A DNA stretch of 64,000 bases from Patescibacteria group bacterium (GTDB lineage: Bacteria; Patescibacteriota; Minisyncoccia; Phycocordibacterales; Phycocordibacteraceae), in assembly GCA_040390125.1 (NCBI GenBank), contig JAZJYZ010000001.1, forward strand, positions 668,210-732,209. The letters are read 5' to 3'. This document shows positions 4,770 to 61,422 of this stretch, in pieces (within the stretch, counting starts at the first letter, position 1; every line of letters starts with the position of its first letter). The notes beneath the pieces are model-generated. The model was given only the letters and a program-made list of their open reading frames with translations, searched no databases and was not told where the DNA came from. A program made the position numbers and the translations under genes.

Positions 4770-5594
4770 TTATAGTCTGAGTCGGTAGATGTCAAAAGAA
4801 TTCTCGCCTTCGAACATGTCTGAAGGGTTTGGAAGGTACATACGCTCCCTGAGTATTTCGGCACTCGCATCATTAATGAGTCGATGAAATACTTCGAAGT
4901 CTTCTTCACATTCCTTAAAATCCAATACGTAGCGACGCATCTGGGATGAGCCATCGGCATTCTTTCTCTTTTTGCACTCGTACACAATGAAACGCCTGAC
5001 TGGTTTACCAAAAAGAGCTCCGACGGTGTAGTAGTTAAACATCGCCTGCAGTACAAAAAGTGGTTTATTGGCACCACTCTTACTGAATGAATCAACAAAT
5101 TTGTGATCCACAATGTCGACCGCTCCTTTTTCAACACGAGATTCAACCACTAAGTCAGAAATCGCTTTCACCGGGAGCGGTAGTCCTGGAACTTCTGCCA
5201 TACCCATAACTTCAATCCCTAAGACTTTATGTTTTGGTGGACGCTCTAAATAGAAAGACACTGCTTGCAAGTAATCTTTCTCCATCGAAAGCCTTTTCTC
5301 TTTTTGTGCTCGCTTACTCTTTGCTTTACCAAACTGTACTTCAAAGTCCGGAACATTTCGTAGGTACTCCAGCCCTAATGCGATAGACGCTTCTTTTGAA
5401 AGTCCGCTATAAAAATGCTGAAGCGCCACGTGCCCAGAGCGTCCAATGATGCCTGCGGGCGTGGACGGCGTGTCTCGCACATTTTCAACATACCGCTTGT
5501 ACCACGCCAGAGGGTTCCTCAAGAAGGATATCAAGGAAGAATGGCTCCAGTGTTTTATGGGATACTTTGATTTCTTACTCGAAGCCTTTTTCAC
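4770..5594 (-). CDS. PD-(D/E)XK (RecB/Cas4-like) nuclease-fold protein, hypothetical
   Basis: 274 aa with a GTG start. N-terminal HWSHSSLISFLRNPLAWYKRY resembles the RecB-family nuclease N-motif. VDIVDHK resembles the hhDYK catalytic motif. Assignment rests on motifs only. Confidence 0.5.
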   Translation of the reverse strand: MKKASSKKSKYPIKHWSHSSLISFLRNPLAWYKRYVENVRDTPSTPAGIIGRSGHVALQHFYSGLSKEASIALGLEYLRNVPDFEVQFGKAKSKRAQKEKRLSMEKDYLQAVSFYLERPPKHKVLGIEVMGMAEVPGLPLPVKAISDLVVESRVEKGAVDIVDHKFVDSFSKSGANKPLFVLQAMFNYYTVGALFGKPVRRFIVYECKKRKNADGSSQMRRYVLDFKECEEDFEVFHRLINDASAEILRERMYLPNPSDMFEGENSFDIYRLRL

Positions 5595-7349: not shown

Positions 7350-9149
7350 TTAGTGGAGCTTCAAAGCAAGCACGCTGAGCTCCTGCATGAGCGTCTCAGT
7401 TTTCGAATCATCATGTGCCATTTCGGCGACCCGCAATGATGCAAGAACTTCACGATAGCGTTCATGCCGAGATTCTTTCAAAAGTGCATCATACACTTCC
7501 TCGACCGCACTCTGTCGAAGCGATTCATCTTCATGACGCTCCAGAAAGAAATCGGCTTCGAATAATGCGGCACTGGTGTCCGTCGGGGCTTCGAGCAATA
7601 ATCGCAAACGCTCTTCGGAAAGCGCCCCCTTGAGGGCATTCAAGGCTAACTCGGCACCCGACTCATCTTTCTTTTCCTTATAGAGAAGTAGGAGCCCGAA
7701 TACAAGACGCTCGAGCACATCACCTCGTGACAAGAAAGGCTGGGACTGCGTTAGTACTGAGTTCTGAGTACTGAGTACTGAGCTCGGACTCTGGACTCTC
7801 GACTCTGAACTCTGAACTTTTTTAAGTTCCGCAATCACCGCATCCTCTCCAACTTGAAGCACTTCTGCAACACGCTTAATGAAATGTGCCTGGTCTATTT
7901 TGTGAGGAATCATTGCGACGTACGGTAGAACGGTACGGGAAACTTCAAGGCGGAATGTTCGTGCGTCATACTTAGCATCCGCAATGTGTGCAAGGTAAAA
8001 ATCAACCACGTGAAGAGCTCCTTTGACCGCCACTCTAAATGATTCTTTGTTTTCGAGAAGCATGTCTGCAGGGTCCTTCTCTGGGGGGAGTTTTACTATT
8101 TTTACGTCGAGACCAATCTGTAGCGCTATGCCAGCGGCACGCCCTGCAGCCGAGATGCCTGCCCTATCACCGTCATAGGCTATGAGGAGGTTACCGGTGT
8201 AGCGTTTTATTATTTCTGCGTGTGGAAGTGTAAACGCAGTTCCTGAGGTTGCGAGTGCGTTCCGATACCCTGCTTGGTGAGCCATGAGTAAATCAAGCTG
8301 TCCTTCAACGAGAAGTGCCGCACCGAGCTCTCGAATACCGTCACGTGCACGGTCAAGACCATAGAGTGCACGTGATTTATCGAATACAGGAGTTTCCGGA
8401 GAATTCAGATACTTGGCTTGCGGGTGCTTTTCATCGTCTTCAAAAATGCGGCCCGAAAACCCAATAACTCTCCCTGAAATATCCTTAATGGGAAACATGA
8501 TGCGACCACGAAACCGATCGTACGTCCGTGCCAAAGGCACGGACGAGTTCTGAGTTCCTAGTTCTGAGTTCTGAGTTAACTCTGGACTCGGAACTCTAGA
8601 CTCTGAACTTTCCTGCTGTTTCACTAGTCCCGCACGCTCCAAAAGAGCATCATCAAAATTCTTTTCAAGCAAAAAGTCCCGGAGACTATGCCACGCATTC
8701 GACGCATACCCCAAAGACCATGAAGATATAGTTTCTTCTGTTAACCCTCGCTTCGTGAGGTAGGTAAAAGCGTCTGGCTTTTCTTTGAGGGTCGCAGAGA
8801 AAAAACCATTAGCTGTTTCAAGAACAGAATACAAACGTTCACGCAAATCACGCTCACCAGGTTTCTCATCTTCTAGAGGGACGCCTGCTTTTTCTGCCAG
8901 CATTTTTAAGGAACCGCGAAAATCCACTCCTTCCATCTCTTGTAGGAATGTAAACATATCGCCTCCTTTGCCTGAGGAAAAACAGTGATACAAACCTCGG
9001 TCAGGAGAAACAAAAAATGAAGGGGTCTTTTCTTTCGTGAATGGAGAAAGCCCCTTGTAGTACTTCCCCGCACGTGTGAGCTTCACGTACTGCTGTACCA
9101 CTTCAAGAATAGTGAGTCGTTCCTTAATTTTATTGACGGTGTCGCTCAT
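7350..9149 (-). CDS. dnaG: DNA primase DnaG
   Basis: CHC2 zinc finger [15 protein letters not shown] and TOPRIM region EGQLDLL / YDGDRAG. Contains two in-frame low-complexity insertions (listed as repeats below). Confidence 0.9.
7750..7815. repeat. gagt(a/t)ct / gactctg heptamer mini-element inserted in frame inside dnaG
   Basis: agtactgagttctgagtactgagtactgagctc-ggactctggactctcgactctgaactctgaact, translated on the minus strand as [23 protein letters not shown]. Confidence 0.75.
8545..8618. repeat. Second copy of the gagttct/gactctg mini-element inside dnaG
   Basis: gagttctgagttcctagttctgagttctgagttaactctggactcggaactctagactctgaact, translated as [23 protein letters not shown]. Confidence 0.75.
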
Positions 9150-13619: not shown

Positions 13620-16600
13620 TTAGGAGCGATCAGCTCTATTTCTATTAAATTTTCGTGTAGGTGTTGCGTCTGGGTCTGAGCCGTCATTTCTTCCAAGAAT
13701 CACATCAAGACAGAGGCCCCGGAGGTGGTTGACGAGCACATTGAATGCCGCAGGCGTATGGGTGTGTTCAATGGGACGACGCTTCACGATTGCATCAAAT
13801 GCGGCAGAGCGTCCTTGGATGTCGTCAGACTTAATAGTGAGCATTTCTCGCAAGGTATACGCAGCGCCGTAACCCAAGAGTGCCCACACTTCCATTTCTC
13901 CGAATCGCTGACCACCGTTTTGAGCTTTACCGCCGAGTGGTTGCTGAGTAATAAGAGAGTATGGACCGATTGAGCGCATGTGGATCTTGTCTTCAACCAT
14001 GTGGTGCAGTTTCAAGATGTACATGTAGCCAACGGCAATATCTTGTGCAAATTGCTCACCGGTGCGTCCGTCAAACAGTGGCATCGTTCCAGATTCTGCA
14101 AAACCAGCACTCTTCAACTCTCCACGTATTTCAGTTTCAGTAACGCCAGAGAAGGATGGAACAATAGCCTGATAGTTTAATGTGTGTGCCGCAAGGCCTA
14201 AGTGCATTTCAAGAATCTGTCCTAAGTTCATGCGGGAAGGAATACCAAGGGGTGTCAAAATGACATCAATTGGTTCTCCGTCTGCACCATATGGCATGTC
14301 CTCCACTGGCAACACTCTCGAGATAACGCCTTTGTTACCGTGACGTCCTGCGAGTTTGTCGCCCACAGAAACGTTTCGAAGTTGTGCAATGGTGATGTAA
14401 ATTTTCTTGATAGTTCCTGATTCCAAGCTATTGCCTCGCTCTCTTGAGAACACTTGTACGCCAATAACTCGGCCACGCTTTCCTCCCTCCATGCGGAGCG
14501 ATGTATCTTTCACGTCTTTTGCTTTGTCGCCGAAAATGGAACGGAGCAAGCGCTCTTCTGGAGTAAGCTGTGTTTCTCCCTTTGGTGTTACTTTTCCCAC
14601 CAAAATGTCGCCAGGCCTGACTTCTGCACCAACACGCACAATTCCCTCTTCGTCGAGATTGCGAAGTTTCACTTCAGAGACGTTAGGGATGTCTGGTGTC
14701 GTAATCTCGGGTCCTAGCTTTGTGTCACGAACAGCTACATCAAATTCCTCAATATGAATTGTTGAGAACTTATTGTTCTGCACAAGTCTTTCAGAAATGA
14801 TGATGGCGTCTTCGTAGTTGTTACCGCTCCAGCTCATGAATGCAACTTTGACGTTCTGTCCAAGTGCGAGCTGTCCGTTGTCTGAAGAGGAGGTGTCGGC
14901 AAGCAAGTCTCCACGCTTCACTTTCTGATTTAAAGAAACTGATGGGCGGTGGTTGAAGCACGAGAACTCGTTTGTCATTGAGAATGGCTCAAGTTTGTAT
15001 TCATGGCTCTTACCTTTTTCGTCCTTAACTACAATGTGCTGTGAGTCTACAGTCGTAACCGTACCTGGCTCTTTTGCGTAGATAAGGCGTCCAGTGTCTC
15101 TCGCTGCCATTTCCTCAATACCTGTTGCAACAATAGGTGCCTCAGGCTGGACGCATGGCGTTGCTTGTTTTTGCATGTTCGAACCCATGAGCGCTCTGTT
15201 TGCGTCATCGTTCTCAACGAATGGGATCATTGAAGTAGCAATTGAGAACATTTGGTTGGTTGCAATGTCCATGAATTTAATTTCATCTTTGGGAACGAGA
15301 ACAGGCTCACCATGGCGACGTGCTTCCACATAATCTTCAGTAAGTGTGTTGCCATTCAGTGCAACTGCTGCGTGTGCAATTGGATACTGTGCTTCTTCGA
15401 ATGCGTTCATGTACACAATCTCATCTGTCACCTTGCCCTTCACCACTTTTGCGTAAGGAGTTTCGATGATGCCGAAATCGTTGATGCGAGCGTATGTTGC
15501 AAGACGCAAAATGAGACCAATGTTCTGACCTTCAGGAGTTTGAATTGGGCAAAGGCGTCCGTAGTGCGAAGTGTGCACGTCACGAACTTCAAAGCCGGCA
15601 CGCTCACGTGTTAAGCCTCCGGGACCGAGTGCTGAAACAGTGCGGAGGTTTTCAAGCTCATCCAAAATGTTCTGCTGAGCAGCAAGCTGAGAAAGTTGGT
15701 TTGCAGTAAAGAATTCTTTAATTGCAGCTGCGAGTGGTCGTGGGTTCACGAGCTGTGTTGGAAGTGTTGTTTCAACGTCAATGGTCGACATTCTGTCTTG
15801 AATGTTTCGCTTCATGCGAGACAAACCAACACGAACACGTGCCTCAAGGAGTTCACCAATCTGACGGACACGACGGAAACCAAGGTGGTCAATGTCGTCG
15901 CCTTCAGCACCTGGAGTGTTATTTAATTCAATGATGTGAGAGACGATCAATACGATATCGTCCATGGAAAGAGTTCGAATATCGAGCTCCTTTTTGTCCA
16001 TCGACAAGTTAAAGCGTTGATTGAACCGGTGACGTCCTGGGTATGAAAGGTCATAGCGTTCAGGCGAGAAGATGCTCTTCACGTATTCACGAGCAGTGTC
16101 AGGAGTTGCAAGGTCACCATCACGAAGACGGCGGTATATCTCTATATATGCTTGCTCTATCGCCTTTGCAGAGTCTTTCTCCAACGTTGCCTGTATCGCA
16201 GCCTTACCTCCGGGAATGCGCTCAAAAAGAGTTACGAGGTCACGGTCAAATGATGCACCGAGAACACGAAGAAGTGTCGTTACCGGAAACTTACGCTTGC
16301 GGTCAATCTTTACGAAAATAGCACCGTCAGCTTCTGAATCAATTTCAATCCATGCACCACGGGCTGGAATTATTTTTGCACCAAAGCAAACCTTGCCACG
16401 CATTTCGCCAGCTGAAAAAAATACACCGAAGGAACGTGCAAGCTGAGGAACAATGACACGCTCGACACCGTTAATGATGAAGGTGCCGTGCTCGGTCATT
16501 ATCGGAAAATCTGCAAGGAAAATTGGTTGCTCTTTTTTCGAGCCGAGCATTTTGTTGGTCAAACGAACAGTAGCTTTGAGTGGTGCGTCATAGGTCATCT

Positions 16601-16838
16601 TCTGCTCTTTTGCTCCATACTCATCAATCTTCGGCTCGCCGAGTTCAAAAGAAACGAACTCGAGTTCGAATTTTTTCTTTGAATAATCCATAACAGGAGA
16701 AAACTCCTTGAAGAGATCCTTCATGCCTTCGGAAATGAACGCACGGAAGCTCGCCACCTGAGGTGCTACGAGGTCAGGCATCGGAACACGGGGCGCACGG
16801 TACTTAGAGAATCTTTTCTGAGGTAGTGATTTTGCCAT
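13620..16838 (-). CDS. rpoB: DNA-directed RNA polymerase subunit beta
   Basis: 1072 aa. Conserved beta-subunit blocks (GPGGLTRERAGFEVRDVH, NMQRQAVP-like segment, C-terminal GGQRFGEMEVWAL). Confidence 0.97.
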   Translation of the reverse strand: MAKSLPQKRFSKYRAPRVPMPDLVAPQVASFRAFISEGMKDLFKEFSPVMDYSKKKFELEFVSFELGEPKIDEYGAKEQKMTYDAPLKATVRLTNKMLGSKKEQPIFLADFPIMTEHGTFIINGVERVIVPQLARSFGVFFSAGEMRGKVCFGAKIIPARGAWIEIDSEADGAIFVKIDRKRKFPVTTLLRVLGASFDRDLVTLFERIPGGKAAIQATLEKDSAKAIEQAYIEIYRRLRDGDLATPDTAREYVKSIFSPERYDLSYPGRHRFNQRFNLSMDKKELDIRTLSMDDIVLIVSHIIELNNTPGAEGDDIDHLGFRRVRQIGELLEARVRVGLSRMKRNIQDRMSTIDVETTLPTQLVNPRPLAAAIKEFFTANQLSQLAAQQNILDELENLRTVSALGPGGLTRERAGFEVRDVHTSHYGRLCPIQTPEGQNIGLILRLATYARINDFGIIETPYAKVVKGKVTDEIVYMNAFEEAQYPIAHAAVALNGNTLTEDYVEARRHGEPVLVPKDEIKFMDIATNQMFSIATSMIPFVENDDANRALMGSNMQKQATPCVQPEAPIVATGIEEMAARDTGRLIYAKEPGTVTTVDSQHIVVKDEKGKSHEYKLEPFSMTNEFSCFNHRPSVSLNQKVKRGDLLADTSSSDNGQLALGQNVKVAFMSWSGNNYEDAIIISERLVQNNKFSTIHIEEFDVAVRDTKLGPEITTPDIPNVSEVKLRNLDEEGIVRVGAEVRPGDILVGKVTPKGETQLTPEERLLRSIFGDKAKDVKDTSLRMEGGKRGRVIGVQVFSRERGNSLESGTIKKIYITIAQLRNVSVGDKLAGRHGNKGVISRVLPVEDMPYGADGEPIDVILTPLGIPSRMNLGQILEMHLGLAAHTLNYQAIVPSFSGVTETEIRGELKSAGFAESGTMPLFDGRTGEQFAQDIAVGYMYILKLHHMVEDKIHMRSIGPYSLITQQPLGGKAQNGGQRFGEMEVWALLGYGAAYTLREMLTIKSDDIQGRSAAFDAIVKRRPIEHTHTPAAFNVLVNHLRGLCLDVILGRNDGSDPDATPTRKFNRNRADRS

Positions 16839-16867
16839 CTTAGATTTTATTAACGATTGCTAATGAG

Positions 16868-16954
16868 TTTATAAAATCTTAGACCCCGTTAAATACATTG
16901 AGGAACTCAATGTCCCGCCTGGCGGGATTTAACGGGGTTAAGTCGTTTATAATC
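16868..16954 (-). promoter_or_regulatory. Structured element (three-way hairpin) in the rpoB 5' leader
   Basis: Outer stem cttagaccccgttaaat / atttaacggggt(t)aag encloses inner hairpins acattgag-gaa-ctcaatgt and cccgcc-t-ggcggg. It sits 30-115 nt upstream of the rpoB ATG. Confidence 0.45.
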
Positions 16955-17078
16955 GTCCCCAAAAGGGACTCATTAAACGTCTAAACACGCAAAAAGCGCG
17001 CCCTGCGTTTTTCTTTATATGGGTACTAAAAATCAAAACCCACTACTCCTTTTACACAATCAAAAGTGGTTATAAAAG

Positions 17079-17107
17079 AGTATATCTGAAGGCACCGTGA
17101 AGGTCAA
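17079..17107 (-). promoter_or_regulatory. Sigma-70-type promoter for rpoBC (TTGACC -17 nt- TATACT)
   Basis: Minus strand reads cTTGACCttcacggtgccttcagaTATACT, a near-consensus -35/-10 with 17-nt spacing. The predicted TSS at about 17072 gives a ~235-nt leader. Confidence 0.45.
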
Positions 17108-17195
17108 GGACTTATGCTTTATATACACAACCAATAGGAGGATTGAGACCAGGCTTGATTGTGCGATCTGATCTTGGTCCGCCCAATACAATGTA

Positions 17196-17558
17196 TCAAT
17201 TCAGAGCACTGAGAGCCAGTTCAAGCCAGCGTCTTTTTGCTTCCCCTGTAAGACCTCGTCTCCTCAAAATCACGATTTTTATTAACTCTCTACTCATTGC
17301 GGGAGAATAAAAATGTGCGAGGCCGTTCATTTCATCAAAATAGTCATTATGTTCGCCCTTCCACCTCCGCTCAGTATCCTTTTGTCGATCCAACTCCAGC
17401 GAGCGAGACATGACGCTTCCTTTAAGCAACCAAGAGTGATAACCAGCAATGTCAGATTCACGCGCAGACCGGTCTAATACGTGTCCTAACTGGCGTGCAT
17501 TTAAATACCCTTCTGGAGCAACACCGTACTTCTCCCTACAGCCTTCTAATACACCCAT
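17196..17558 (-). CDS. Hypothetical protein (120 aa)
   Basis: ATG-initiated ORF between the tandem repeat and the rpoB leader. No recognisable motif. Confidence 0.45.
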   Translation of the reverse strand: MGVLEGCREKYGVAPEGYLNARQLGHVLDRSARESDIAGYHSWLLKGSVMSRSLELDRQKDTERRWKGEHNDYFDEMNGLAHFYSPAMSRELIKIVILRRRGLTGEAKRRWLELALSALN

Positions 17559-17664
17559 AGAAAAATAGTATATTCTTTAAAATTTCTTTTTCAAAGTTGC
17601 CGTTCGTCCCTCCTATTTCCTGCCTCGAGGACGAGGTATCGGAAATTCCTGTCTTCGCAGGATC

Positions 17665-17868
17665 GGAAGAAACGCAAAACTATTCCTGTTTCGTTCCTCC
17701 TAAAACCTGTCTCGCTTGCTCGACAACGGTTTTTGCCGCAAAACGGCACCGGAAGAAACGCAAAACTATTCCTGTTTCGTTCCTCCTAAAACCTGTCTCG
17801 CTTGCTCGACAACGGTTTTTGCCGCAAAACGGCACCGGAAGAAACGCAAAACTATTTGCGTTTCTTCC
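17665..17868. repeat. 86-bp tandem direct repeat, 2 full copies plus a partial third ending in a perfect hairpin
   Basis: Unit ggaagaaacgcaaaactattcctgtttcgttcctcctaaaacctgtctcgcttgctcgacaacggtttttgccgcaaaacggcacc at 17665 and 17751. Third copy 17837-17868 is ggaagaaacgcaaa-acta-tttgcgtttcttcc (14-bp perfect stem). A degenerate copy precedes at about 17600-17664. Confidence 0.9.
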
Positions 17869-18616
17869 AAGCTTCAATCTTAGCGTGATTACCTGAAAGA
17901 AGAACTTTCGGAACCTTGTGATTCTTCCCCGCCCATTTAAAAATCTCCGGTCTGGTATAGACCTCCGAGCTAGAAATTCTCTCTTCTTCCACGGACTCAA
18001 ATTTTCCCAAAACACCAGGAATCTGGCGAGCAACAGCATCAATCACGACCATGGCTGGCAACTCCCCTCCAGTGAGAGTGTAAGAACCTACAGAAATTTT
18101 CTTCGCTTTCAATATCTTCTGAACCCGTGCATCAATACCCTCGTAATGCCCACATATCAGCACCACCTGCTTCTTAATGGCAGACATCGTATGTCTGCCA
18201 TTTTTACTCATCAATATTCTGGGTTTACGAAACCCAGAATATTGAGAATGAGCTAGGAGGCGGGCGTCTTTGTTTGTAAATTGCTTCCCCGATGCATCGA
18301 AAAAATAAATAACTGCCCCAGAACTCTGGACTCTGGACTTGGAACTCTGAACTTTTCTCAAAGCGGCTTCTACCGCTTTGAGAAACGGTTCTGCCTGAAG
18401 CACCATGCCAGGGCCACCTCCGTACGGGCGACCATCTACCTTTATGTAGGGCTTATCAGTTTTTTTAGTTACTTTTACAAAATCTCGTGGATTATAAAAT
18501 TTCACTTTAATGTGTTTATCCCGAATCGCTCGCCCAATGATGGAGGACGCAAGATATGAATCAAACGCCTCAGGAAAGAGCGTGACTACGTGAAAAGTCA
18601 GTGGCGTTTTTTTCAT
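17852..18616 (-). CDS. trmD: tRNA (guanine37-N1)-methyltransferase TrmD
   Basis: LTFHVVTLFPEAFDSYL and GGGPGMVL motifs. Contains an in-frame mini-element insertion (VQSSKSRVQSS). Its stop codon lies in the loop of the terminal repeat hairpin. Confidence 0.93.
   Translation of the reverse strand: MKKTPLTFHVVTLFPEAFDSYLASSIIGRAIRDKHIKVKFYNPRDFVKVTKKTDKPYIKVDGRPYGGGPGMVLQAEPFLKAVEAALRKVQSSKSRVQSSGAVIYFFDASGKQFTNKDARLLAHSQYSGFRKPRILMSKNGRHTMSAIKKQVVLICGHYEGIDARVQKILKAKKISVGSYTLTGGELPAMVVIDAVARQIPGVLGKFESVEEERISSSEVYTRPEIFKWAGKNHKVPKVLLSGNHAKIEAWKKRK
18310..18347. repeat. Half-copy (gaactct/gactctg type) of the dnaG mini-element inserted in frame in trmD
   Basis: cagaactctggactctggacttggaactctgaactttt, near-identical to the right arm of the dnaG insertions, translated as KVQSSKSRVQSSG. 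Confidence 0.7.
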
Positions 18617-18919: not shown

Positions 18920-19333
18920 TCAGAGGCGAAGATCTCCAAGGGCTTCGTCAATGGAGCGTGAAGCGGAACCTTGTTCTCCCCTGTCTGCCGGAGCGGAAAA
19001 AGAAGGGGCACTCATTGGGCCAGAGTTAGAAGTCCCCATCGATGAGCTTCCCATGAAGCCTGTGCCCATTGAGCGACTTCCACCTACGGGTTCGTTAATT
19101 TTCAAATTCACTCGTGCGTTGTTCTTCATACCAACGACACGAAGAAGGATACGAATTGCCTTTGCGGTGTTGCCAGAGCGACCAATCACCTTACCCATGT
19201 CTGCAGGATTTACATCCATCGTAAGCAAAACTCCCATCTCATCCACCTGACGATTAACCTTCACGTCGCTTGGGTTATCGACGAGCATCTTAACTACATA
19301 TTCCAGAAACTCCTGATCCTGATTATTGTCCAT
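18920..19333 (-). CDS. KH-domain RNA-binding protein (UPF0109/YlqC-like) with Gly/Ser/Met-rich C-terminal tail
   Basis: KH core VIGRSGNTAKAIRILLRVVG (GxxG). Conserved neighbourhood with trmD. 50-aa low-complexity C-terminal tail. Confidence 0.7.
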   Translation of the reverse strand: MDNNQDQEFLEYVVKMLVDNPSDVKVNRQVDEMGVLLTMDVNPADMGKVIGRSGNTAKAIRILLRVVGMKNNARVNLKINEPVGGSRSMGTGFMGSSSMGTSNSGPMSAPSFSAPADRGEQGSASRSIDEALGDLRL

Positions 19334-21367: not shown

Positions 21368-21378
21368 TTTTGAACGGA

Positions 21379-22317
21379 ATGAAAAAAGAAATCGCTATAG
21401 TGGGATTGGGAAAAATGGGTAGCGCAATGGCTCGCCGGATGATGGAGAAAGGTTGGAAGGTTGTTGGCCTTGACCGCTCTTTGGAAACTCTTGAGACAAT
21501 GAAAGCCGAAGGAGTTGTAACGGTTTCTTCGTACAGCGAAATGGCAGCAGCTCTTACCGCCCCGAGAATCGTCTGGCTCTTTTTGCCTCCTCAGAAAAAC
21601 CTCGAAGAGGAACGCATCGTCGATCAAGAACTTTTTAATCCGGACGGGATCGTAAGTACTCTTGTAGCGGAGGACATTGTTATTGACGGCGGAAATTCCT
21701 TTTTCAAAGAAGCTGCACCGCGTGCTGAAAAACTCAAAGCGAAAGGTATTAATTTCATCGATGCAGGAACCTCAGGAGGACCTGCGGGTGCACGTAGCGG
21801 TGCATGCCTCATGATTGGAGGTGAAAGAAAAACTTTTGAATCAATAGAAGAACTCTTCAAAGATTTTGCACTCGAAGATGGTTATCGTTTCTTTGACGGT
21901 CATGGTGCAGGGCACTTTGTGAAAATGGTTCATAACGGCATTGAGTACGGAATGATGCAAACAATTGCCGAAGGGTTCGAATTACTAAAGAAGTCCGACT
22001 ACGCTCTTGATCTAGAGCGGGTTACCGACATCTATAATAATGGCTCCGTCATAGAATCCAGGCTCGTGGGATGGCTCGGTAACGCCTTCAAAGAAAGTAG
22101 CCAAAATTTGGATGGTATTTCATCAACCGTCCAGCATAATGGTGAAGGCGAATGGACAATACAAGCGGCAAAAGAAGCGGGAGTTGATGTGCACACGATT
22201 GAACACGCACTCCAGTTTCGTCTTGAATCAGAAAAGAACCCACGCTTCGCAGGTAAGGTGCTATCGGCAATGCGAAAGCAATTTGGTGGTCACAACGTTA
22301 AAGAAAAGCCCGAATAG
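21379..22317 (+). CDS. gnd: 6-phosphogluconate dehydrogenase (decarboxylating), short ~310-aa form
   Basis: IAIVGLGKMGSAMARRM Rossmann motif, DGGNSFF and VKMVHNGIEYGMMQ. The ATG at 21379 is preferred over the TTG at 21370. Confidence 0.88.
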   Translation: MKKEIAIVGLGKMGSAMARRMMEKGWKVVGLDRSLETLETMKAEGVVTVSSYSEMAAALTAPRIVWLFLPPQKNLEEERIVDQELFNPDGIVSTLVAEDIVIDGGNSFFKEAAPRAEKLKAKGINFIDAGTSGGPAGARSGACLMIGGERKTFESIEELFKDFALEDGYRFFDGHGAGHFVKMVHNGIEYGMMQTIAEGFELLKKSDYALDLERVTDIYNNGSVIESRLVGWLGNAFKESSQNLDGISSTVQHNGEGEWTIQAAKEAGVDVHTIEHALQFRLESEKNPRFAGKVLSAMRKQFGGHNVKEKPE

Positions 22318-22327
22318 TCGGGCTTTT
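22306..22327 (+). terminator. Intrinsic terminator of zwf-gnd overlapping the gnd stop codon
   Basis: agcccga-ata-gtcgggc hairpin followed by tttt. Confidence 0.55.
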
Positions 22328-22359
22328 CTAGTTCAGAGTTCTTAGTTCCTAGTCTTGAG
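22328..22359. repeat. Intergenic copy (left-arm type) of the gagttct mini-element between gnd and rpsP
   Basis: ctagttcagagttcttagttcctagtcttgagtt, the same 7-mers as the dnaG and trmD insertions. Confidence 0.7.
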
Positions 22360-24978: not shown

Positions 24979-25002
24979 TACCTTCATACAGAGATTTTCT
25001 CC

Positions 25003-25026
25003 TGTGCAACCTCCGGAGGTTGCACA
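25003..25026. repeat. 24-bp perfect palindrome tgtgcaacctccggaggttgcaca (TGTGC-N14-GCACA family) at the rnr 3' end
   Basis: Exact reverse-complement symmetry. A second identical copy is at 40229. The related copies 31836 and 40451 share the ends and the central ccgg. Confidence 0.85.
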
Positions 25027-25110
25027 GCTACTTACGAAGTGCATCTTGGCAAATTTTTCTGCATCAGAATCCAACGACCAAATTCTTTTTGATTCTGCTC
25101 TTTCAATTTC

Positions 25111-25794: not shown

Positions 25795-25851
25795 AGCAAA
25801 AAGCTTAAATTTTTTAAGAGAGCTATTCATATATATAAAAAGTTGAGCGCA

Positions 25852-26169
25852 CTACAGCGCCCAACGATTCACCAAAACAAAAAGCGTTTGAATATCAAGA
25901 CCGCTGTTCCCAAGAACGATGCGGGACAGGCTTCCAGCTTTTATGCTTTGGACAGGTCGGATCATGTTGTCTTCTTTTGACTGAACGAGTTCTGGTAAGA
26001 GAGACTCGTACCCACGCACACGTGCAGGCTTTTTCAGATGAATTATAGGCTTCAGGCATAGGAAAAATTTAGTTTTCATAAGGAGAGCTATTCGGGAATA
26101 TGAAAATGTGTCAGCGCATACTGCGCCAAAATACGGAACTACATACAAAAAATTAATTGGAAAGCTCAT
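25852..26169 (-). CDS. Hypothetical protein (105 aa from ATG 26169; the GTG-extended ORF reaches 26232)
   Basis: ORF-track only, no motif. The ATG start avoids overlap with the upstream ORF. Confidence 0.35.
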   Translation of the reverse strand: MSFPINFLYVVPYFGAVCADTFSYSRIALLMKTKFFLCLKPIIHLKKPARVRGYESLLPELVQSKEDNMIRPVQSIKAGSLSRIVLGNSGLDIQTLFVLVNRWAL

Positions 26170-26176
26170 ATTTTTC

Positions 26177-26392
26177 TCAAGTACGATATATGATTCTTCG
26201 AAATCGTGGTATTTCTTCCCTGTGTACTTCACCTAGAGAGCAACCACAGTCTCTGCAATATCCTTTGAATACCTTTCTACCGTTTTTAGCTGTTTCTACT
26301 TCACGGTACACTCCGTGATGTTTTTTCTGCTCTGCTTCAAGACCAGAACATAGTGGAGCACTGACTGACTCAGGACTGAATAGTGATGACAT
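26177..26392 (-). CDS. Small Cys-rich hypothetical protein (71 aa); C-terminal part of a TAA-split ORF
   Basis: CRDCGC motif. An in-frame 43-aa ORF (26402..26533) ends at a TAA four codons upstream of this gene's ATG. Confidence 0.4.
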   Translation of the reverse strand: MSSLFSPESVSAPLCSGLEAEQKKHHGVYREVETAKNGRKVFKGYCRDCGCSLGEVHREEIPRFRRIIYRT

Positions 26393-31776: not shown

Positions 31777-31835
31777 GTCGGGAAAATAACACAACAATAC
31801 CCGCAATGCAAGAGGAGTAATTTTAGCCCGTTTTT

Positions 31836-31859
31836 TGTGCTACACCCGGGTGTAGCACA
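31836..31859. repeat. 24-bp perfect palindrome tgtgctacacccgggtgtagcaca downstream of rnc
   Basis: Exact palindrome flanked by tttttt and aaa. An identical copy is at 40451. Confidence 0.85.
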
Positions 31860-31907
31860 AAGTACCCCTCTTTCCCTAAACACTAAACACTGTCCACTAA
31901 ACCCTAA

Positions 31908-35117: not shown

Positions 35118-35220
35118 AGCTTCTAGCTTTCAGCCTATAGCTTATAGGGAGGAAAGAAAGGTTTTTTGGGATATTGGATGTGTAAAGCTGGAAGCTGACA
35201 GCTGGAAGCTGTAAGCTACT
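35118..35220. repeat. Composite agcttctag / agctggaag heptamer element filling the divergent rnhB-dnaE gap
   Basis: agcttctagctttcagcctatagcttataggg ... aaagctggaagctgacagctggaagctgtaagctact. The central AT-rich 35 nt (ttttttgggatattggatgtgt) probably carries the divergent promoters. Confidence 0.7.
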
Positions 35221-40189: not shown

Positions 40190-40216
40190 CATGTAGGACA
40201 TACGATGTCCTACATG
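40190..40216 (+). terminator. Perfect 12-bp hairpin catgtaggacat-acg-atgtcctacatg downstream of thrS
   Basis: Exact stem 36 nt after the thrS stop. No U-tract. Immediately followed by the 24-bp palindrome at 40229. Confidence 0.4.
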
Positions 40217-40228
40217 GTTATCTTCGTT

Positions 40229-40252
40229 TGTGCAACCTCCGGAGGTTGCACA
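40229..40252. repeat. 24-bp palindrome tgtgcaacctccggaggttgcaca (second copy)
   Basis: Identical to 25003-25026. Confidence 0.85.
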
Positions 40253-40450
40253 AACACAAATATTACTTGGGGGAATGAGTCGCAGTTTGCTGCAGAAATG
40301 CTTCTACCACGCCCTTTGGAGCTCGTCGCATCAAGTCCAGGAAGAACTTATACCTACTACCTCCCCTGCCAAGACCCCACCAGACATTTACGAGTTGCTC
40401 TAGGGTTACCGGTTTTAAAGCCTCTCGATGTTCCATATTTTTGATGTATT

Positions 40451-40474
40451 TGTGCTACACCCGGGTGTAGCACA
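40451..40474. repeat. 24-bp palindrome tgtgctacacccgggtgtagcaca (second copy)
   Basis: Identical to 31836-31859. Lies 60 nt past the 3' end of the adhesin gene. Confidence 0.85.
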
Positions 40475-40533
40475 AAATTGGTGGGATTAATCTGCGGGCT
40501 GTCACACCTTCCCTTCTCATACGTTTTAGTTAA

Positions 40534-50174: not shown

Positions 50175-50218
50175 CTAAAAAGCTGAAAGCTAACAGCTGA
50201 AACCTGAAAGCTAAAAAG
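50175..50218. repeat. agctgaa-type heptamer element abutting the gyrB stop
   Basis: ctaaaaagctgaaagctaacagctgaaacctgaaagctaaaaag. Confidence 0.7.
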
Positions 50219-57756: not shown

Positions 57757-57851
57757 TAAACCCCACTTCGGTACATCGGTACACGTGGGGCTACCTCTAG
57801 GTAGCCCCACGTGTACCGAATCGAGCACTCCAAGCGCTGTATTAGAAACCC

Positions 57852-58709
57852 TTAGAAGCCAGAAATATCGTAGAGGACTTTACCGTCTTTAACTATCAAA
57901 GAACCGCTCACGATACGAAACTCTGCACCTGGCCGACTATAGAGTGGAACAACAAGCGGGATTGGGCGAACATCGTTTTCAGCGAGAAAGATGCCTGACT
58001 CCTTTGTCGCATACACAACACCGCCTGCAAAAAATCGAGCATCAGTAACTGTGTCCTTCCCTTTTTCAAGGAAAAACTCTTGAACGCACGCTGAGGGCTT
58101 CAGACAAAATGAACTCGGTGTGGAGCGAGGATCCTTGATCCAGCGAACAACTATATTGCCATTCTCTACATATAACTCGGTTCCACCTCGAGTAGCGGAG
58201 GGTGTTGATGTCGCATCTGTGTCACGAAGCGGTGAAGAAGTTGCTTGATTAGAAAATGCTTTAAGAAGTGCAGTGTACTCATTTCTTGAAACAGCATGAG
58301 TTGTGGAAGCGATTTGGCTCTCGTCGCCTATTTCTATTTCACGGATTGAAATCGATTGAGGTACAAGAAACGCCGCAACGTCAGTAACAATTCGTGGCTC
58401 TACCGTAATCTTCTTTACCCATGGGTAGTAACCATCTTTGGACACCTGCACTATATACGCTCCCTCAACAAGATTGTCCGTATAAAATGACCGAGTAAAA
58501 AGTCCGCTCACTCCTTCTTCTTTACCATTAATAACAACACTTGCGTCAGAGATGGGCACCGAAACATAAATCCCTCCTGTCTCCACAAGAGAAAAACCAT
58601 TAAACCGGTACCCCGAGGCGTAGAAGACTGCAATCGGTACCGTGCAAAGAAATGCCGTGACAGACACCGCAAGATAGACGAAGCGAGTTCTCGCTGAAAG
58701 GGGTTTCAT
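57852..58709 (-). CDS. Membrane-anchored PEGA-domain protein
   Basis: N-terminal TM. PEGA-like segment ASVVINGKEEGVSG...VEGAYIVQVSKDGYYPWVKKITVEP. Confidence 0.55.
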   Translation of the reverse strand: MKPLSARTRFVYLAVSVTAFLCTVPIAVFYASGYRFNGFSLVETGGIYVSVPISDASVVINGKEEGVSGLFTRSFYTDNLVEGAYIVQVSKDGYYPWVKKITVEPRIVTDVAAFLVPQSISIREIEIGDESQIASTTHAVSRNEYTALLKAFSNQATSSPLRDTDATSTPSATRGGTELYVENGNIVVRWIKDPRSTPSSFCLKPSACVQEFFLEKGKDTVTDARFFAGGVVYATKESGIFLAENDVRPIPLVVPLYSRPGAEFRIVSGSLIVKDGKVLYDISGF

Positions 58710-61325: not shown

Positions 61326-61401
61326 TTTTTCTTATTGGAGCCGCCTCCCAGATTCGAACTGGGGACCTTCACTTTACAAAAGTGTTGCTCTACCAACTGA
61401 G
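61326..61401 (-). tRNA. tRNA-Thr (anticodon UGU)
   Basis: GCCGCCTTAGCTCAGTTGGTAGAGCAACACTTTTGTAAAGTGAAGGTCCCCAGTTCGAATCTGGGAGGCGGCTCCA. 7-bp acceptor stem, D-loop AGTTGGTA, anticodon loop TTTGTAA, T-loop TTCGAAT, CCA encoded. D-arm identical to E. coli tRNA-Thr. Confidence 0.85.
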
Positions 61402-61422
61402 CTAAGGCGGCAATGGTATGTA

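Follow-up and report, generated by a model that had tools for sequence, protein, structure and literature searches.

The 3′ end of trmD carries an 86-bp tandem repeat in a 64,000-nt stretch of DNA from a Patescibacteria group bacterium (GenBank assembly GCA_040390125.1, contig JAZJYZ010000001.1, positions 668,210 to 732,209). This whole 64-kb stretch is referred to below as the window, and positions are counted from its first letter. The repeat consists of three tandem copies, in the order A, A, B, of a structured element of approximately 90 nt that is functional, and its unit is under purifying selection. Five relatives have this element once, immediately after trmD, and a sixth has part of it. 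The element most likely marks the end of the trmD transcript, and we put at slightly better than even the chance that the array is a tandem triplication of an operon-end module composed of a terminator and a 3′ untranslated region (3′ UTR).

The tandem array and hairpin H1

Two exact 86-nt copies (17664-17749 and 17750-17835) and a partial third (17836-17864) were recovered by direct-repeat search, and the array that they form, at 17664-17856 by Tandem Repeats Finder, is the sole long-period tandem repeat of the window. At its trmD end, a perfect hairpin (H1) is built from 14-nt arms at 17837-17850 and 17855-17868 around a 4-nt loop, with a folding energy of −20.4 kcal/mol (z = −9.1). The stop codon of trmD (TAG, or UAG in the transcript, at 17852-17854) sits inside this loop, and the 5′ arm encodes (W)KKRK, that is, four codons and 2 nt of the Trp codon. 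Exact 86-bp units and a perfect 14-bp hairpin with the trmD stop in its loop had been described in an initial annotation made from the letters alone, and repeat searches bore out both. Its assignment of AWKKRK to the stem was slightly generous, and the search for the unit elsewhere that it proposed gave no occurrence in the 64 kb beyond the array, with 20-26-nt pieces of the unit likewise absent (chance expectation 0).

The initial annotation also gave each full unit an imperfect version of the same hairpin and a second hairpin. The former can be drawn (H1′ and H1″, Table 1), but it joins the tail of one unit to the pyrimidine arm of the next, and in the minimum-energy fold of an internal unit the pyrimidine arm pairs instead with the unit's own tail. 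The latter corresponds only roughly to helix P2 (GCCG-UUUUG-CGGC), described below. One arm of the unit hairpin, formerly taken for a decayed trmD 3′ end, is the conserved tail AGGAGGGACGAA that is also present in single-copy relatives.

The authenticity of the array was assessed using Logan contigs from sequencing run SRR26324623, in which one contig (L001) carries trmD, another (L002) carries the 120-aa open reading frame (ORF) located after the array, and both stop inside the repeat. The k=31 graph of the region was simulated with one, two, or three A units; a single unit produced no break, and two or more produced unitigs whose ends coincide with the final base of L001 and the initial base of L002. 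Because the contig ends match the simulated breaks exactly, the reads hold at least two A units, and an assembly artefact is unlikely.

Anatomy of the element and its occurrence in relatives

Close relatives were obtained by protein search (TrmD 70-78% identity), which also gave a protein identical to the TrmD of the window in a Patescibacteria metagenome-assembled genome at NCBI, and by contig look-ups; in a scan of TrmD across GTDB, identity was at most 48% among the matches listed. One copy of the element lies directly after trmD in five Paceibacterota loci (L084, L085, L086, L088, and L098; TrmD 72-78% identical to that of the window). The element sequence of L083 is identical to that of L084, and those of L087 and L089 are identical to that of L086. 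A partial element, limited to H1 and P2, was found in L092, and L094, L096, L099, and L100 are without the element after trmD. Copy number, for which the initial annotation had suggested looking at related strains, is three in the window and one in each of the five relatives, as compared between genomes.

Read on the trmD sense strand, the element comprises H1, a 5-bp hairpin (P2), a 6-bp helix (P3) enclosing a 5-7-bp hairpin (P4), and then a conserved, single-stranded purine tail, GGNGGGAC. In H1, the Lys/Arg-rich end of trmD forms the 5′ arm, opposite a 3′ arm rich in U and C. Two types of the element were distinguished. Type A, in which P4 carries a tandem G-A/A-G mismatch, is represented by L084, L098, and the two exact units of the window; type B is represented by L086, L088, and the window copy at 17606-17664. 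The element of L085 is a hybrid with an A-like 5′ half and a B-like 3′ half. A degenerate upstream copy had initially been described at 17597-17663; the copy exists (80% identity over 25 nt), but it is a full, separately conserved type-B variant and not a decayed one.

H1 is retained across the relatives through changes on both arms that track the trmD coding sequence (Table 1), and the trmD stop codon, where present, always sits in the H1 loop in the relatives examined. In L085 (4001-4834), the stop in the loop is lost (loop CTGC), H1 is still a perfect 14-bp hairpin, and the TrmD ORF crosses the whole element to a conserved UUUAG, adding 22 residues for a total of 277 aa.

Structure, covariation, and conservation

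Eight elements, representing seven independent sequences from a narrow clade, were aligned structurally. RNAalifold run on this alignment predicted H1, P2, P3, and P4 unaided. Over the 32 pairs, 90.6% of cells were paired and 13 pairs changed on both sides; a lack of such structure-supporting covariation had been named in the initial annotation among the results that would refute it. Controls in which the 3′ partner was slid by 1-3 columns gave 35-54% of cells paired and 1-3 two-sided pairs, and none of 500 column shuffles matched the observed pairing values.

The fold was also carried from one type to the other. A covariance model (R2) was built from the three type-A bodies alone, with the type-B bodies held out, and recovered the latter at full length (24.2 bits for the window, 23.3 for L088, and 18.9 for L086, with E-values from 7.5e-6, for the window, to 4.9e-4); the hybrid L085 scored 49.5 bits. 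A sequence-only model made from the same type-A alignment missed the type-B body of the window, that of L086, and half of that of L088, and scored L085 at 29.5 bits.

Comparison of same-type bodies across genomes gives identities of 0.83-0.86 (0.76 for L098). The type-A body of the window is 86% identical to the single copy in L084, and its type-B body is 83-85% identical to the copies in L086 and L088 but only 54% identical to its type-A neighbour. In the adjacent trmD, identity is 0.32-0.51 at fourfold synonymous sites and 0.41-0.55 at third codon positions, and the non-coding body is constrained about as strongly as first and second codon positions. The contrast in identity between the body (83-86%) and the fourfold synonymous sites of trmD (32-51%) shows that the element is functional and that purifying selection acts on its unit. 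Compensatory changes together with conservation above the neutral level are the general marks of a structured non-coding RNA, and the element shows both. The low identity between A and B within the window places the A/B split before the species split, and the identity of the two A units indicates that duplication of the A unit was recent.

Table 1 Features of the trmD 3′ region and arms of H1 (positions are those of the window unless a related locus is named)
Feature	Position	Strand	Basis or description
trmD, 254 aa	17852..18616	minus	Pfam PF01746 (tRNA_m1G_MT), E 8.3e-33; last four codons and stop in H1
Exact tandem array, 86 bp x 2.2 copies	17664..17856	none	Tandem Repeats Finder score 386, 100% matches, no indels
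H1, perfect 14-bp hairpin GGAAGAAACGCAAA-UAGU-UUUGCGUUUCUUCC	17837..17868	minus	Inverted-repeat search and folding
H1′, imperfect hairpin of copy-1 tail (GGAACGAAACAGGAA) and second pyrimidine arm (UUUGCGUUUCUUCC)	17751..17783	minus	Inverted-repeat search, folding
H1″, imperfect hairpin of copy-2 tail and third pyrimidine arm	17665..17697	minus	Inverted-repeat search, folding
Type-A body, copy 1: P2 17820-17834; P3 around P4 17788-17819; purine tail AGGAGGAAC 17779-17787	17779..17836	minus	Alignment, RNAalifold, pair counts
Type-A body, copy 2, identical to copy 1	17693..17750	minus	Repeat searches; model R2, 86.4 bits for each copy
Type-B body: P2 UCCUG-CGAAGA-CAGGA, P3 AUUUCC/GGAAAU, P4 CCUCG-UCCU-CGAGG, tail AGGAGGGAC	17606..17664	minus	Identity and structural model
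Promoter-like site TTGAAA-16-TATACT	17567..17594	minus	10/12 hexamer matches; 8 nt before ATG of 120-aa ORF
120-aa orphan ORF (context only, not part of the element)	17196..17558	minus	One homologue known
rpoB promoter-like site TTGACC-17-TATACT	17107-17079	minus	
rpoB leader region	16839-17107; L085 4900-5093; L100 2190-2322	minus (window)	
trmD-rpoB interval	16839-17851; L084 4691-6267; L086 4685-5939; L092 3194-4278; L094 3287-5261; L096 3167-5264; L098 2212-3251		
H1 arms, window and L084			5′ GGAAGAAACGCAAA; 3′ UUUGCGUUUCUUCC
H1 arms, L086, L088, and L092			5′ GGAAAAAACAGAAA; 3′ UUUCUGUUUUUU(U/C)C
H1 arms, L085			5′ GGAAGAAUCGAGAA; 3′ UUCUCGAUUCUUCC
H1 arms, L098			5′ GGAGAAAAGGAAAA; 3′ UUUUCC(C)UUUUCUCC

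Locus specificity and gene context

A covariance model of the full element (R1), run on the window with filters off, returned only the three tandem copies as element matches (108.9, 82.8, and 65.9 bits, the first for H1 with copy 1 of the type-A body), the other matches being weak and to unrelated palindromes. Across 155 kb of related loci, the same model found nothing beyond the trmD site. When a metagenome was scanned for the conserved 3′ motif, the hits were two loci of trmD and, by chance, one site within a coding region of high GC content (L091); a pattern scan of the 206-kb contig of a relative yielded one site. Across the 64-kb window and the related loci, the element is locus-specific to the 3′ end of trmD. 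A dispersed repeat of the repetitive extragenic palindrome (REP), bacterial interspersed mosaic element (BIME), miniature inverted-repeat transposable element (MITE), or mycobacterial interspersed repetitive unit (MIRU) kind was rejected, since word searches of the window, model R1 on the window and the 155 kb of related loci, and, its one chance match aside, the metagenome scan all lead only to the trmD site. Rfam searches of the window and relatives assigned the element to no family at gathering or permissive thresholds (permissive matches all had E > 1), the only gathering-level match in the window being a tRNA at 61339-61411. A literature search found nothing on such an element.

The relatives share the gene order S16, G6PD/6PGD, KH, a 58-aa ORF, trmD, variable genes, and rpoB. 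In the window, the corresponding genes all lie on the minus strand, in the order KH-domain gene (18920-19333), trmD, array, 120-aa ORF, and rpoB (13620-16838). The gene that follows the element differs among relatives and may be a 129-aa ORF, a 286-aa ORF, an AAA_33 kinase, or the rpoB leader, so that from genome to genome the element remains linked to trmD but has different downstream neighbours. Cis-regulation of the downstream gene, one of the functions initially suggested, is not supported by this arrangement, in which the element always follows trmD and the next gene varies, or by the promoter-like site that the downstream ORF has of its own.

The interval between trmD and rpoB (Table 1) is a hotspot of gene turnover, occupied by a 120/129-aa orphan ORF, the 286-aa ORF, AAA_33 kinases, small ORFs, or nothing. 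The only homologue of the 120-aa ORF among 5.8 billion clustered proteins is 75% identical and occupies the corresponding position in L084. The 286-aa ORF occurs nowhere in the 64 kb of the window, and neither ORF has a Pfam, PHROGs, or PADLOC match.

Probable transcript ends around trmD

Perfect hairpins are frequent in the window (20 observed against 0.35 expected), and where a long gap follows a gene, the gene ends in a strong perfect hairpin composed of an A-rich arm, a core stem, and a U-rich arm. H1 fits this build and is therefore read as an operon-end terminator or 3′-end hairpin; that it is an operon-end terminator hairpin is probable. A TAG stop codon also lies in a hairpin loop at the ends of two other ORFs, 21370..22317 (plus strand; hairpin 22302-22329) and 25852..26232 (minus strand; hairpin at approximately 25850-25885), so the stop-in-loop arrangement of trmD is a general feature of this genome and not special to the locus. 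A promoter-like site follows the array (Table 1) and its sequence, TTGAAA-16-TATACT, is conserved in L084; on this basis the array is directly followed by the start of a new transcription unit, and the mRNA of the 120-aa ORF appears to be near-leaderless. A second promoter-like site precedes the rpoB leader (Table 1), and together with the constant link of the element to trmD these features point to the end of a transcription unit. Of the functions offered in the initial annotation, an expanded terminator comes closest, given the build that H1 shares with other operon-end hairpins and the separate promoter after the array.

Under this model, H1 would act as the intrinsic-terminator or 3′-end hairpin of the rpsP-KH-trmD transcription unit. 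The P2-P4 body would be a structured 3′ UTR that helps to define or protect the trmD 3′ end, and it might insulate the trmD unit from the separately promoted downstream genes (the 120-aa ORF and then rpoB). Types A and B may descend from an ancient tandem pair that was resolved differently in the relatives, or they may be recombining allelic forms; the L085 hybrid, with A on the left and B on the right, would be the expected remnant of a deletion between a tandem A and B. The 21-nt direct repeats on either side of an A body (AATAGTTTTGCGTTTCTTCCG) allow 86-bp units to be gained or lost, and the second A unit could have arisen by recent slippage or unequal crossing-over between these repeats. 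The extra copies would bring two weaker hairpins of terminator-like build, and their effect is probably neutral or mildly reinforcing.

Several observations weigh against the terminator and 3′-UTR model. The H1 stem is without a free U-run, being followed by GGUGCC or GAUCC, and was not called in a consensus terminator scan; the far part of its 3′ arm is rich in U (UUUCUUCC, or UUUUUUUC in L086), which would allow a shorter core stem followed by a U-rich tract. A plain terminator neither needs nor explains the conserved 58-nt body. Helix P3 is broken in L086, L088, and L098, of which L086 and L088 can form a substitute helix (AAGCC/GGCUU). The count of 14 G-U against 10 A-C pairs makes for a weak strand assignment, which leaves room for a DNA-level hairpin. 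Finally, both the fold and the conservation are drawn from the seven independent sequences of one narrow clade.

Alternative explanations

In the first and main alternative, the P2-P4 body and tail are a regulatory RNA in themselves, either a small RNA derived from the 3′ UTR or a translation-sensing switch. In the switch version, a ribosome stopping in the H1 loop would melt H1, and the freed pyrimidine arm would pair with the purine tail to give a three-way junction; this arm-tail pairing would set read-through towards the downstream genes and rpoB, and copy number would tune the dose. Conservation of the body far above the neutral rate, its covariation, the structure cross-validated between types, and the constant placing of the stop codon (when present) in the H1 loop all agree with such a role. 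The arm-tail helix can be formed in 96% of cells and is the minimum-energy fold of the internal unit, but none of its pairs changes on both sides, and purine-pyrimidine pairing tolerates many wobbles. Moreover, with the competing strand placed after the terminator hairpin, the order is wrong for antitermination of the classic type; no promoter was found inside the unit, and the element has no Rfam relative. We consider a regulatory RNA unlikely, if still a serious candidate. The more specific proposal of a hitherto undescribed functional RNA in this Paceibacterota clade, made up of the 58-nt body and its GGNGGGAC tail and acting as a 3′-UTR-borne riboregulator or ribosome-sensing switch with its dose set by copy number (1-3), is rather doubtful.

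A second alternative places the activity in DNA, with the palindromes serving as binding or cleavage sites for a hairpin-recognising protein such as a recombinase, transposase, or nucleoid protein. A recombination hotspot of this kind would account for the tandem copies and also for the changing set of genes between trmD and rpoB; in nearly every relative, the genes just downstream of the element are different. Perfect palindromes are abundant, as noted above, some of them lie in frame inside trmD, one trmD palindrome of L088 is identical to an intergenic copy, and the wobble counts favour neither strand clearly. Types A and B, however, share a fold at only 54% sequence identity, which fits a folded single strand better than a duplex site; we infer that RNA and not DNA is the active form. 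No recombinase or transposase gene adjoins the locus in the relatives examined, and the element is confined to a single locus. A DNA-level element is accordingly held to be improbable.

The array could also be a functionless minisatellite, produced as slippage copies of ordinary intergenic DNA. The copies are arranged head to tail and differ in number between related genomes, as in variable-number tandem repeats (VNTRs); the 100% identity of the two A units marks their duplication as recent, the 21-nt flanking direct repeats offer a route to it, and 86 is not a multiple of 3. To this extent the satellite-like repeat considered in the initial annotation holds, with three copies against one. The unit, however, is 83-86% conserved where synonymous sites are near saturation, and its helices are kept by compensatory changes, which makes a functionless repeat quite improbable. 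The duplication itself may be neutral, though the unit is not.

It is very improbable that the array is an assembly artefact or a coding extension of TrmD read through UAG. Short-read assemblers mishandle repeats of this sort, but the k=31 contig ends are those expected from two or more units. Read-through would be in keeping with the extended TrmD of L085 and with a frame that, in the window, L086, and L098, continues open beyond the stop as far as the conserved UUUAG; this coding reading was rejected on account of single-base indels that break the frame in L084 and L088 and a period of 86 nt. A small ORF or a Shine-Dalgarno role for the AGGAGG tail was likewise rejected, as no start codon is suitably spaced and the middle base of this tail varies (A, G, or C).

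A type III toxin-antitoxin system, in which the array would be the antitoxin-like RNA and the 120-aa ORF the toxin, is scarcely credible and was rejected: tandem structured repeats do lie directly upstream of a small orphan ORF, as in ToxI-like arrays, but L086, L088, and L098 have the element without the 120-aa ORF, L084 has the ORF with a single element, a promoter-like site separates the repeats from the ORF, where type III arrays always share one transcript with the toxin gene, the ORF is without PADLOC or Pfam match and without homology to toxins such as ToxN, AbiQ, or CptN, and the unit of 86 nt is about twice as long as the known type III repeat units of roughly 34-45 nt.

Comparison with known elements

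The closest known counterparts are intrinsic terminators, including bidirectional (A-tract/U-tract) and tandem forms. As in these, a stable stem-loop stands at the end of a transcription unit, a U-rich 3′ arm pairs with an A-rich 5′ arm, several hairpins follow in a row, and hairpin and stop codon overlap, an arrangement common in compact genomes. Unlike them, the trmD element is without an unpaired U-run and has a conserved 58-nt structured body.

MIRUs are units of approximately 46-101 bp that lie between operon genes and overlap stop and start codons. The array resembles MIRUs and VNTRs in unit size, variable tandem copy number, intergenic position on one strand, and overlap with the end of the upstream ORF. 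MIRUs are, however, dispersed at dozens of loci per genome, whereas the trmD element is found only after trmD and has a covarying RNA fold. With REP/BIME repeats, enterobacterial repetitive intergenic consensus (ERIC) sequences, and Rickettsia palindromic elements (RPEs), the element shares palindromic hairpins at gene 3′ ends and clustering, and such repeats can stabilise the upstream mRNA; RPEs are inserted in Rickettsia genes, and genomes with the trmD element likewise carry small in-frame palindromes in trmD. The 90-nt element differs from these families in not being dispersed, in being far longer than REP, and in its orthologous conservation at one locus.

The Rfam family L19_leader is the rplS leader and is located between trmD and rplS in Firmicutes. 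Both it and the present element are structured RNAs directly downstream of trmD, but the latter gives no match to the family even permissively, rplS is not downstream, and the next gene is variable.

The array is thus of an already known kind, in that it combines operon-end hairpins with variable-number tandem intergenic repeats; the particular RNA motif is undescribed, and its 58-nt body is a candidate new RNA motif of narrow distribution that belongs to no known family. As the element most likely marks the trmD transcript end, the 86-bp repeat is a small local curiosity and not a new kind of system. If the terminator and 3′-UTR model is correct, the locus is an example of how a very compact genome of the candidate phyla radiation (CPR) ends an operon, with the coding sequence of the basic TrmD C-terminal tail serving as the 5′ arm of H1 and covarying with a non-coding 3′ arm. 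It would also show a terminator module becoming a small VNTR. Such a result would not be surprising, but it would help in annotating the ends of transcripts and in typing strains of Patescibacteria.

Other features of the window and related loci

The 5′ leader of rpoB (Table 1), approximately 240 nt in length, includes several hairpins, and its sequence is conserved among relatives (..CCTGTAACCACTTTTGATTGTGTA..GAAAAACGCAGGGCGCGCTTTTTGCGTG..). No Rfam family was assigned to it in the whole-window search at gathering thresholds, and it may be regulatory.

Within trmD of the window, perfect in-frame palindromes are located at 18176-18202, 18211-18245, and 18354-18385, in variable surface loops of the protein, with arms of 11-16 bp and a loop of 3 nt (CGT, ACG, or CGG). 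Close relatives carry a different yet perfect palindrome at the same TrmD site (L084 4342-4370, L085 4399-4427, and L086 and L088 4347-4371), and relatives with TrmD identity of 74% or less (L092-L100) have no trmD palindromes. The L088 palindrome (ATGTGGGACAT-ACG-ATGTCCCACAT) is identical to an intergenic copy at 4778-4802, about 100 nt downstream of trmD. Similar intergenic palindromes lie at 40190-40216 in the window and downstream of trmD in L084, L085, and L086. This looks like either a small element spreading into coding sequence in the manner of RPEs or palindromy under strong selection. The abundance of perfect palindromes, some of which keep the reading frame within a surface loop of an essential enzyme, may outrank the repeat in interest.

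Loop-less perfect palindromes built on TGTGC(A/T)AC..CCGG/CCCGGG were found in 3′ intergenic positions at 25002-25027, 31834-31861, 40226-40255, and 40449-40476, those at 31834 and 40449 being identical. A separate 44-nt perfect palindrome (57776-57819, −41.9 kcal/mol) follows ORF 57852..58709. None of these five has a U-tail.

Tandem repeats with a period of 7 or 14 nt occur inside genes at 18323-18353 (trmD) and at 7753-7782 and 8545-8609 (both in ORF 7350..9149), and just outside the listed ORFs at 35184-35217 and 50178-50216. The trmD repeat encodes QSSKSRVQSS, and the length of this loop varies among relatives, in which TrmD ranges from 229 to 281 aa.

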